A stretch of DNA of 61,864 bases, the filler included, from Circinaria calcarea (lineage: Eukaryota): the NCBI GenBank assembly GCA_051942165.1. It is 8 parts of 8 records of this genome, joined end to end, with 100 filler letters (N's around TTAATTAATTAA, not from the genome) between each part and the next. Parts side by side here need not be neighbours in the genome. Positions count along the whole stretch, not along the records: positions 38,766 to 46,400 come from JAVECS010001278.1; 7 more parts are not named here. One strand, written 5' to 3'. Every line of letters begins with the position of its first letter. The stretch's first letter is position 1. The position numbers were made by a program, and so were the translations under genes. A model generated the notes under the pieces. That model was not told where the DNA came from and made no database searches. It saw only the letters and a list, made by a program, of their open reading frames with translations. Positions 41,146 through 53,177 of this stretch are shown here, in pieces.

Positions 41146-42624
41146 TCAGGTCGTCTTGGTTTCAGCCCAATCCACCCATCTCCGCACAACTTGGTCTACA
41201 TTCCTCACCCCTTTCCTACTTGCTTCAACCTCAAACCACTCTCGATGCTCTTTCCCACACCCCACGCAATCTCTTTTCACTCGCTTTTCCGCCAGCTCGA
41301 TGTGAATAAGACGCTCTACCCTGTGCGCGTACGGGACTTTCCTGGGATTGGGCGATGAGGTGGAAGGGGTAAAGGGAGATGCAGGGGCCAAACTTGGGGA
41401 AGAAGGAAAGTAAGGATAATAGCGGACTAGAGTGAGATTGTGGTTGCATTGTCGTGTCCACTCGTTCATACGACGCTGAACGTTTGATGCGCGGCCGATT
41501 TTGAGGAGGATGGTGGCTTTTCCGGAAGAGTTCTGACTCGGAATACTCGTGCTTGCTGGATAGTCCTGTTTCAGTTCACTCGTTCTTCGAACTCTGGGAT
41601 TGGACTTTGTAGACGGCAGCAAGAGAGATGATGCGAGATCTGGCTCTGGAGCTGCGGATGTATCCGGTGTGAGCCAGAATATATAGATCCAGCCGCCGTC
41701 TTGATCGAATGGCGAGGTGGGTTTTGCCAGTTCTGCAAGAAGCAATGATGTCGTTTGTGGGGATAGCGATTTAGGGATCAATGCAAGCAGGGACTGGGTT
41801 TGGGTTGAGAGATCTCGGGCGAGAGCAGGCCGGTGGGAATGGATGGTAGGGTTAAGGGTTGATAGAGGTTGCCGATGATTGATGTCATTTGAAGAATCCG
41901 CTTTCTTGGAGGCTGCAGCTCGAGGAGATACGGCTGATTGTAGTCCCATTGGAGGCGTAGACATAGAATGGTGCGATAGTCGAGTATTTTCAGCAACACT
42001 GGGCTGCCTAGGTGATTCATCGTAGTGTCGAATGCGAGGTGCTTGCGTATACTCTGGATCCGTGGATCGGACACAGCAGAAGATGGATAGCACGAAACTC
42101 AAATCCCCTCTAGGCTTTCGTCGGTACTGAGAGCTTGGAGGTAAACGATTTTCCGGTACTGACATCAACGGCCCCGAGATGTCCTGCCATTGCGGAGGTA
42201 ACGTCTCCTTCTTCACTGGCTTCCTTCTGTGTTTGGAGTTTCCTTGCTTCGACGTCTTATCATTATCTTCAACATTCAAGACGCCGAGGCGATCAACGAG
42301 CGTATCTATACTGGATCTTTCCTTTAGGCCGAGAACTCTGCCTCCTTTGTCTTTGGCTTCTCCATTGGCAAGAGGTCCAGCTTGTTCTTTGTGTTGCCAG
42401 CAGAAGAAGGCCGCTGCCGCCTCATGATCATCACTGGTATCAGGTAGTATGGCAATCACGCCGTATTTCGTACCCGGCGATGCAGTTGGTGAGTTACCAT
42501 TGGATGCAGCTAGAGATCTCCGACATGGCCGGCCACTTGACGTGATGCCCTTACATGTCGTTGATGGGTTTTTGGAGTCTGACCGAGGCAGAAGAGACTC
42601 GGGAGTATGAGGAATGAAAGGCAT
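41146..42624 (-). CDS. T5orf172 / MUG113 (DUF1766)-type GIY-YIG-like domain protein
   Basis: N-terminal CKGITSSGRPCRR..FCWQH; GWIYIF, LKIGRASNVQRRMNEWTRQC and HRVERLIHIEL..CxxCGKEHREWF. Confidence 0.85.
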   Translation of the reverse strand: MPFIPHTPESLLPRSDSKNPSTTCKGITSSGRPCRRSLAASNGNSPTASPGTKYGVIAILPDTSDDHEAAAAFFCWQHKEQAGPLANGEAKDKGGRVLGLKERSSIDTLVDRLGVLNVEDNDKTSKQGNSKHRRKPVKKETLPPQWQDISGPLMSVPENRLPPSSQYRRKPRGDLSFVLSIFCCVRSTDPEYTQAPRIRHYDESPRQPSVAENTRLSHHSMSTPPMGLQSAVSPRAAASKKADSSNDINHRQPLSTLNPTIHSHRPALARDLSTQTQSLLALIPKSLSPQTTSLLLAELAKPTSPFDQDGGWIYIFWLTPDTSAAPEPDLASSLLLPSTKSNPRVRRTSELKQDYPASTSIPSQNSSGKATILLKIGRASNVQRRMNEWTRQCNHNLTLVRYYPYFPSSPSLAPASPFTPSTSSPNPRKVPYAHRVERLIHIELAEKRVKRDCVGCGKEHREWFEVEASRKGVRNVDQVVRRWVDWAETKTT

Positions 42625-45293: not shown

Positions 45294-45542
45294 TGGAGAT
45301 GCGGGGAATCGAACCCTTGGACTATTAGTGACTGATTCTGATGTAACAATGCACATTAACTTACCCGGACCCCATCCAAACATGCTCCTGAAAGAGGATT
45401 ATGCTACTATGCGGGGTATTAGCCTACGGCTCTTAGAATAAATTACCAATTTTACACACAGGATGTATTATACTAGGCTATGATTAGCGTAATGAATAAT
45501 ACAAAGATTGATTCAAAGTCTTACCCACTAAACCACATCCCC
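45294..45542 (-). tRNA. tRNA-Ala(AGC) split by three spliceosomal-type introns and one canonical tRNA intron
   Basis: Exons 45542-45525, 45472-45460, 45406-45402, 45378-45365 and 45315-45294 join to GGGGATGTGGTTTAGTGGTATAATACATCCTTAGCATGGATGGGGTCCGGGGTTCGATTCCCCGCATCTCCA (72 nt). Acceptor stem has G3:U70, anticodon stem CATCC/GGATG with anticodon AGC, T stem CGGGG/CCCCG. Confidence 0.93.
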
Positions 45543-51898: not shown

Positions 51899-53177
51899 AT
51901 GGCGCTCGACAAGTTCTTCCACAACAAGATCGAGAGCATGAAGCTCGAGATCATCCAGGGCCAAGCTGTCCTGCGGCGATTAGAAGCTCAACGGAACGAC
52001 TACAACTCAAGAGTGCGCTTGCTGCGTGAGGAGTTGGGCCTCTTGCAGCAGCCGGGCTCATACGTTGGAGAGGTGGTGAAGGTGATGGGTACCAAGAAAG
52101 TCCTTGTAAAGGTACATCCCGAAGGCAAATACGGTACGCTCATCATCTCATCACAGTCTTTGTGAATGTTTTCTAACATCCTTTCTGAAGTGGTGGACAT
52201 ATCGGACAATGTCGACATCACCAAACTTACAGTCGGCAAACGAGTCACTCTACTCTCCGATTCATATAAACTTGAAAAGCTTCTTCCCTCCTCTGTCGAC
52301 CCACTCGTCTCGCTCATGATGGTGGAGAAAGTTCCCGACAGTACCTATGACATGATTGGAGGACTTGATCAACAAGTAAAGGAGATCAAGGAAGTCATTG
52401 AACTCGGCCTGAAGCACCCTGAACTATTCGAATCGCTTGGTATAGCGCAGCCCAAAGGGGTCCTGCTTTATGGGCCCCCCGGAACCGGAAAGACGCTGTT
52501 GGCCCGAGCGGTGGCGCATCATACAGACTGCAAATTCATCAGGGTTTCAGGATCTGAGCTTGTGCAAAAATACATTGGTGAAGGTAGTCGAATGGTCCGA
52601 GAACTCTTCGTTATGGCCCGAGAACATGCCCCCAGTATCATCTTCATGGACGAGATTGACAGCATCGGTTCATCGCGTGTAGAGGGCAGCAGTGGTGGAG
52701 ATTCAGAGGTACAACGGACGATGCTGGAACTACTAAATCAGTTGGATGGCTTCGAACCGACAAAAGGAATCAAGGTCATCATGGCAACGAATCGGCTCGA
52801 TATTTTAGATCCAGCTCTACTCAGACCAGGGAGAATAGACAGAAAAATTGAATTCCCCCCTCCTACGTAAGTCCTTATTATACTATTTATGCCAGAGCTA
52901 CTCCTAACATAAGAACAGGGTCGAAGCACGTGCTGATATTCTCCGGATCCATTCCCGCTCCATGAACCTGACTCGTGGCATCAATTTAACCAAAATCGCC
53001 GAGAAAATGAACGGTTGTTCAGGCGCCGAACTGAAGGGAGTTTGTACGGAAGCAGGCATGTATGCTCTGAGGGAGAGAAGAGTACATGTCACCCAAGAGG
53101 ACTTTGATTTAGCCACAGCCAAAGTGCTGAACAAACATGACGACAAGGAGGTCAGCCTTGGGAAACTGTGGAAATAG
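51899..53177 (+). CDS. RPT6: 26S proteasome AAA-ATPase subunit Rpt6 (regulatory subunit 8)
   Basis: [17 protein letters not shown], Walker A GPPGTGKT, Walker [10 protein letters not shown]-terminus SLGKLWK*; two introns. Confidence 0.97.

Follow-up and report, generated by a model that had tools for sequence, protein, structure and literature searches.

The window analysed here is a stretch of 61,864 nt (filler included) from Circinaria calcarea, a lichen-forming fungus of the Pertusariales, and its Pfam matches (Vts1, MUG113, ARMT1-like), together with reading frames that are broken, identify it as fungal nuclear genome. On the minus strand of the part derived from JAVECS010001278.1, positions 45542-45294 hold a nuclear tRNA-Ala(AGC) gene whose 72 coding nucleotides form five segments (18, 13, 5, 14 and 22 nt) dispersed across 249 nt, with 177 non-tRNA bases between the gene ends. 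Read along this strand, the interval opens with the 7 bases of an acceptor strand and has a D-loop that resembles an A box; its 3' side presents a T-loop reading TTCGATT, the acceptor strand complementary to the first, a single A and a run of six T residues.

The layout, always on the minus strand, is as follows. Exon 1 (45542-45525, 18 nt) provides tRNA positions 1-19, that is, the 5' acceptor strand with G3, positions 8-9, the 5' D-stem strand and the D-loop as far as G18 G19; it contains the complete A box, and the identical 18-mer begins the seven environmental tRNA-Ala(AGC) genes described below. Intron 1 (45524-45473, 52 nt; GTAAGA...CTAAT...TAG) interrupts the D-loop between G19 and U20, with a border that slides by one G. 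Exon 2 is a micro-exon of 13 nt (45472-45460) carrying positions 20-32: the end of the D-loop, the 3' D-stem strand, A26, the 5' anticodon-stem strand and U32. Intron 2 (45459-45407, 53 nt; GTGTGT...CTAAT...TAG) separates U32 from U33 in the anticodon loop; both borders admit a single placement and fall exactly at GT and AG, the latter at 45408-45407. Exon 3 (45406-45365) measures 42 nt including a 23-nt insert. Its first 5 nt (45406-45402) are U33, the anticodon A34 G35 C36 and A37, followed by a canonical tRNA intron of 23 nt (45401-45379), which ARAGORN places at 37/38 once the three long inserts have been removed in silico; its last 14 nt (45378-45365) comprise U38, the 3' anticodon-stem strand, the variable loop and T-stem bases 49-51. 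Intron 3 (45364-45316, 49 nt; GTAAGT...CTAAT...AAG) splits the 5' strand of the T stem at 51/52, and its border slides by one G either way. Exon 4 (45315-45294, 22 nt) completes the molecule with positions 52-73, namely the remaining T arm, the 3' acceptor strand with U70 and the discriminator A73, and it contains the complete B box. One base past the discriminator, a T6 run (45292-45287) resembles a Pol III terminator. A sequence-only reading of this DNA had given internal exons of 13 and 42 nt and a spacing of 5 nt between the intron 2 acceptor and the 23-nt insert, and both agree with the intervals above (45472-45460 and 45406-45365 for the exons; exon bases 45406-45402 for the spacing).

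Neither ARAGORN nor Rfam recognises the gene in its genomic form. ARAGORN reports no tRNA across the whole window and, applied to the raw locus, returns nothing in three of four settings; the tRNA-Asn(GTT) with a 162-nt intron that it proposes there at a lowered threshold has a poor T stem and was discarded as an artefact. The Rfam tRNA model (RF00005) does not match the raw locus at its gathering score, nor at E values up to 10, and the sole Rfam match at E up to 10 is a 13-base T-loop segment assigned to the tmRNA family. Once the three long inserts are deleted in silico, ARAGORN calls a tRNA-Ala(AGC) of 72 nt with a 23-nt intron at 37/38, with an acceptor stem of 7 bp, an anticodon stem of 5 bp and a T stem of 5 bp. 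The cloverleaf features sought, a 7-nt anticodon loop, a purine at position 37 and a TTCGA-type loop, appear only when the inserts have been removed. The joined product has G3.U70 in the acceptor stem, U33 and A37 in the anticodon loop and A as discriminator base 73. Alanine identity is marked by G3:U70 and A73. These marks, borne by exons 1 and 4, and the AGC anticodon, which is assembled only on removal of intron 2, are two independent features that agree. On sequence evidence, the observation of a nuclear tRNA-Ala(AGC) gene with three GT-AG inserts and a further insert at 37/38 is thus confirmed. A-box and B-box matches elsewhere in the window (33711/33965, 42883 and 52748) proved on inspection not to be tRNA genes.

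The metagenome contigs were scanned with the exon-1 18-mer and yielded 21 loci, 14 of them unrelated chance or repeat matches and seven of them related environmental tRNA-Ala(AGC) genes (L006, L009, L010, L011, L014, L015 and L016). ARAGORN calls five of these seven, and the Rfam tRNA model scores 52.5-63.5 bits in all four that were tested with it. Five relatives are uninterrupted, and L010 (44 nt) and L015 (27 nt) carry only an intron at 37/38; a GT-AG-type insert was found in none of the seven. The three insert junctions are contiguous in every relative, by which all three predicted splice junctions are independently confirmed. The predicted 72-nt product is identical to six relatives at 65/72 positions and to L015 at 62/72. 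Against L011, six of the seven differences make up three compensated base pairs, located in the anticodon stem and the T stem; the remaining one lies in the variable loop. The D stem of the joined product consists of the pairs G.U, U-A, U-A and U.U, as it does in 7/7 relatives; the U13.U22 mismatch, common to all eight sequences, is therefore a family trait rather than a sign of decay. The relatives also decide between two arrangements of the D arm, since an alternative model with a contiguous D arm and a non-GT insert at 26/27 folds well in ARAGORN, yet was rejected because all seven show the D arm predicted by the GT-AG model.

Each of the three long inserts has a GT start, a G at +5, a CTAAT motif whose branch A lies 9-12 nt from the end (11, 12 and 9 nt for introns 1, 2 and 3, respectively) and a terminal AG. 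The fungal branch-site motif is CTRAY. We defined a full signal set as GT, R at +3, G at +5 and CTRAY located 3-13 nt before NAG; only 73 of 2,000,000 random 49-53-nt segments of the window carry it, whereas it is present at all three sites dictated by the tRNA fold. The same product could be obtained with 2, 1 and 3 placements of introns 1, 2 and 3, exactly one of each being GT-AG. From the frequency per segment and these numbers of placements, the joint probability of the three sets arising by chance is about 10^-13, and a chance origin is excluded.

For comparison with mRNA introns, a reference set was taken from the window itself: 94 stretches show the signal pattern, and the removal of 17 of them restores long reading frames. 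These 17 are only putative mRNA introns, as the frame test is weak, passing 8.55% of all 17,012 GT..AG pairs in this size range against 18.1% of the signal-bearing set. They measure 47-85 nt, with a median of 60, a range that includes the 49-53 nt of the tRNA inserts, and the branch site lies 7-14 nt from the end in 16 of the 17. Their 3' ends are AAG (8/17), TAG (5/17), CAG (3/17) and GAG (1/17). Among these putative introns, which include 44793-44747 (minus strand) and 52867-52918 (plus strand), AAG is more frequent than the YAG rule predicts.

Acceptor choice is less simple at two of the inserts. Intron 3 has two candidate acceptors, and only the AAG at 45316 yields a T stem with 5/5 pairs; the TAG at 45322, which lies 3 nt from the branch A, was rejected, leaving 3/5 T-stem pairs and a variable region of 11 bases. 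In intron 1, a competing AG occurs at 45479-45478 on the minus strand, 6 nt past the branch A. Its use would add 5 nt to the D-loop, and ARAGORN still calls the resulting 77-nt sequence as a tRNA, a point that counts against the explanation we favour below.

Multiple non-canonical introns within D and T arms of tRNAs do occur in archaea, Cyanidioschyzon merolae and nucleomorphs (PMC4090602, in the sections available), and by analogy the tRNA endonuclease could remove all four inserts through motifs of the bulge-helix-bulge (BHB) type, the GT-AG appearance of three of them being incidental. We consider this most improbable. A BHB motif has two 3-nt bulges that bear the splice sites, a 4-bp helix between them and one or more flanking helices. 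A home-made scan that asked for the 4-bp central helix plus a flanking helix of no less than 2 bp found none at the borders of any of the three long inserts, and the best scores were equalled by 1499, 250 and 559 of 2000 shuffled-insert controls for introns 1, 2 and 3, respectively. The inserts do not have unusual secondary structure either (fold z scores of -0.13, +0.37 and +0.43), and this explanation leaves the triple coincidence of full spliceosomal signals unaccounted for. Mutual similarity among the three inserts stays within the range of shuffled sequences, and none has a match longer than 13 nt elsewhere in the window, where no introner-like family was seen. In their sequence, the three long inserts look like ordinary spliceosomal introns; they resemble neither tRNA introns of the archaeal type nor self-splicing introns nor elements derived from repeats.

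The fourth interruption is of a different kind. The 23-nt insert begins with TA and ends with TT, lacks GT, AG and CTRAY, and has borders that slide by one T. Its position at 37/38 (45401-45379) and its ends other than GT-AG had been described in the sequence-only reading, and coordinates, ends and the ARAGORN placement all concur. The same reading had taken it for a normal SEN/TSEN-type intron, an assignment made more credible by the ARAGORN call and by the presence of an intron at the same site in two of the seven relatives. With the three full sets of spliceosomal signals, the in silico evidence also bears out the claim that one RNA would carry two intron types. As to structure, a small UCCU/AGGA hairpin attributed to the insert does appear in minimum-energy folds, but its strength is at chance level, 60 of 200 shuffles folding equally well or better (z -0.41). 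A proposed pairing between the 3' end of the insert and the anticodon region is likewise found in the minimum-energy fold, as the 5 bp AGCAU:AUGUU, in a fold no better than those of shuffled sequences (z -0.54). The last five bases of the 44-nt L010 intron (537-580 of that locus), which pair with the anticodon region, recur at the end of the 23-nt insert, and the two introns may derive from a common ancestral tRNA-Ala(AGC) intron.

Transcription signals were searched for with the A-box and B-box consensus motifs. The A box matches at 45535-45525 and the B box at 45315-45305, with all four interruptions between them, and together with the T6 run these elements make Pol III the likely polymerase of the unit. 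Two considerations weigh against such a reading: the boxes stand 209 nt apart, compared with about 32 nt in the relatives, and Pol III transcripts are without the cap and the coupling to Pol II that normally aid splicing. Runs of four or more T residues are absent from the 249-nt unit, which is uninformative, because 12% of shuffled sequences lack them as well and the putative mRNA introns contain only 2 in 1036 nt; we accordingly gave their absence no weight in favour of Pol III. The longest T runs within the 249-nt gene are T3, of which there are six, as against six T4-T6 runs in the 60 nt that follow (45293-45234, minus strand), a suggestive difference but not a significant one. After three of the four distinct relative genes, T5 to T9 runs occur within two bases; L011 has only T4, four bases on.

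Downstream of the tRNA gene, at about 160 nt, lies the first coding exon of an ARMT1-like gene on the same strand, the protein product of which is 100% identical, over 85% of the query, to a protein attributed to Circinaria calcarea and has its next named counterparts in other Lecanoromycetes at about 80-82%. This proximity raises the distinctly unlikely alternative that a Pol II transcript, such as one of an ARMT1-like gene that extends further upstream, contains the tRNA; its introns would then be spliced co-transcriptionally and the tRNA released by RNase P and RNase Z. Spliceosomes normally work on Pol II transcripts (PMC12530127, in the portion seen), and the T6 run belongs to a T-rich spacer in which such runs abound. 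Both boxes are whole, on the other hand, the oligo-T lies one base past the discriminator as for three of the four distinct relative genes, and spliceosomal introns are on record in fungal transcripts of Pol I and of Pol III (PMC5855946 and PMC8527467, in the parts consulted). Transcription by Pol II would in any case alter the first step only, and two machineries would still be needed.

Another alternative, which we hold to be unlikely, is that the locus is a dead or dispensable copy which acquired inserts and now gives no expression or no usable tRNA, the cell being supplied by intact paralogues; other intact tRNA-Ala(AGC) copies may indeed exist and would make the interrupted copy dispensable. 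In eukaryotes, insertions in the D or T arm of tRNA genes mostly concern a single copy among many synonymous ones and are regarded as pseudogenes (PMC4090602, as far as its text was available), none of the seven relatives bears the inserts, and the wide A-B box spacing fits the same idea. The exons themselves show no decay: stems pair, changes relative to the environmental genes are compensated, and boxes and terminator are whole. Three full sets of splice signals, at borders that restore a tRNA, would not be expected from random insertion into a dead gene, and the gain of introns by reverse splicing requires an expressed RNA.

The explanation that we favour, and regard as probable, is that of a working tRNA-Ala(AGC) gene, transcribed by Pol III, whose three introns would be removed by the spliceosome before SEN removes the 23-nt intron. 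Pol III would transcribe the whole unit from the A and B boxes through the T6 run, and the nuclear spliceosome would take out the three short mRNA-type introns at 19/20 in the D-loop, 32/33 in the anticodon loop and 51/52 in the T stem. The spliced RNA would then be able to form the tRNA body, be end-processed and be exported, and SEN together with tRNA ligase would remove the 23-nt intron at 37/38. Maturation of this tRNA thus probably needs two different splicing machines, as far as can be judged from its gene.

The proposed order of these steps would follow in part from geometry. SEN takes the tRNA body as the reference from which it measures out its cleavage sites (PMC4090602, in the passages available). 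With insert 2 in place, the SEN 5' site is set off from the anticodon stem by 53 bases; insert 3 divides the T stem, and insert 1 enlarges the D-loop, which is part of the elbow. Removal of intron 2, at least, would be required before SEN acts, because that intron, lying between the anticodon stem and the 5' cleavage site, abolishes the constant spacing on which the SEN measurement depends. In budding yeast, moreover, SEN resides on mitochondria and acts after export (same source, same portion); if SEN is cytoplasmic here as in yeast, compartmentation alone would put the nuclear spliceosome first. Folding models point in part in the same direction. The predicted probability of the anticodon stem is 0.00 in all five constructs that retain intron 2 and 0.78-0.94 in the five that do not, and that of the T stem is 0.01-0.05 in the five constructs with intron 3 and 0.11-0.89 in the others, in models that are weak for tRNAs, since they never predict the D stem and give the T stem only 0.22 in the mature sequence. 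Taken with the SEN ruler, the cytoplasmic SEN of yeast and the position of intron 2, these predictions make "spliceosome first, SEN second", which the sequence-only reading had put forward as a likely obligatory order, a reasonable inference. That tRNA supply should thereby be coupled to spliceosome activity, as the sequence-only reading went on to suggest, is speculation. Within the spliceosomal phase, the intervening exon is so short, at 13 nt, that the intron 1 branch A and the intron 2 donor are only 24 nt apart, and introns 1 and 2 are for that reason probably excised one by one.

No spliceosomal intron in a tRNA gene was found in the full-text literature searched, the coverage of which leaves out most subscription journals. 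The nearest precedents are in other non-coding RNA genes of fungi. Fungal U6 genes, in Schizosaccharomyces pombe and many other species, contain mRNA-type introns, up to four per gene, and such introns also occur in U1, U2 and U5 of Rhodotorula hasegawae (PMC5855946, in the part seen). The U6 case resembles ours in that short introns with canonical 5', branch and 3' sites lie in a small non-coding RNA gene transcribed by Pol III, and in that introns within a gene are unrelated in sequence. The tRNA differs in bearing a SEN-type intron as well and in having far smaller exons, down to 13 nt. Nor can closeness to the catalytic centre account for the insertions, since a tRNA does not belong to the spliceosome.

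Lichens themselves provide a second precedent, since their rDNA carries ectopic spliceosomal introns, one of which, of 57 bp, yeast excised when it was part of Pol I transcripts (PMC8527467, from the sections available). The host is a lichen mycobiont in both cases, and the introns sit in a gene outside the Pol II repertoire; there, however, the interrupted RNA is an rRNA made by Pol I, here a tRNA, and the word tRNA has no occurrence in the available text of that report. In archaea, Cyanidioschyzon merolae and nucleomorphs, tRNA genes have up to three introns, placed in the D arm, anticodon loop and T arm, and are hidden from standard tRNA finders much like the present one; their introns are cut at BHB-type motifs by the tRNA endonuclease (PMC4090602, in the relevant portion), whereas spliceosomal signals and no BHB are found here. 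Dependence of one RNA on both the spliceosome and a protein endonuclease with an RNA ligase is known from XBP1/HAC1, where, in contrast to our locus, an mRNA serves as host and IRE1 rather than SEN acts as the second endonuclease (PMC12530127, as covered by the portion consulted). On these comparisons, we place the tRNA-Ala(AGC) locus with the ectopic spliceosomal introns of fungal non-Pol II RNA genes.

A paper of 2025 presents spliceosomal and tRNA introns as unrelated types, the former being found in mRNAs and other Pol II transcripts (PMC12530127, in the text available). A tRNA processed by two machines, if real, would break this division of intron types by host RNA. It would add tRNAs to the few genes transcribed by Pol I or Pol III in which spliceosomal introns are on record, namely U6 and lichen rDNA, and would show that the spliceosome copes with 13-nt exons inside a highly structured RNA. 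It would also offer a natural substrate for studying the order of two splicing systems on one molecule and the ways in which introns enter non-coding RNA genes. Since ARAGORN and Rfam both miss the interrupted gene, tRNA gene counts in fungal genomes would be underestimates. A wider proposition can be advanced tentatively, as a possibility against which we would still lean: that lichen fungi and other filamentous ascomycetes possess a set of essential tRNA genes left unannotated owing to spliceosomal introns, that the tRNA-Ala described here, with its three such introns, SEN intron and 13-nt exon, matures only through a fixed relay from the nuclear spliceosome to SEN, and that the supply of a major tRNA is thus tied to spliceosome capacity. 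If true, this would be the tRNA counterpart of the lichen rDNA introns proposed to throttle ribosome production.

Two further features were noted in passing. A reading frame of 492 aa with a T5orf172/MUG113 domain, of the GIY-YIG-like nuclease family, occupies 41146-42624 on the minus strand, about 2.7 kb from the tRNA gene. Among the loci retrieved with the exon-1 18-mer, six others (L002, L004, L005, L012, L017 and L021; from position 501) start with the 18-base 5' end of tRNA-Ala and continue into a shared, conserved non-tRNA sequence, which could be followed over some 320 nt in five loci and ends after about 60 nt in L012. This shared sequence may represent a tRNA-derived (SINE-like) repeat of some other organism.
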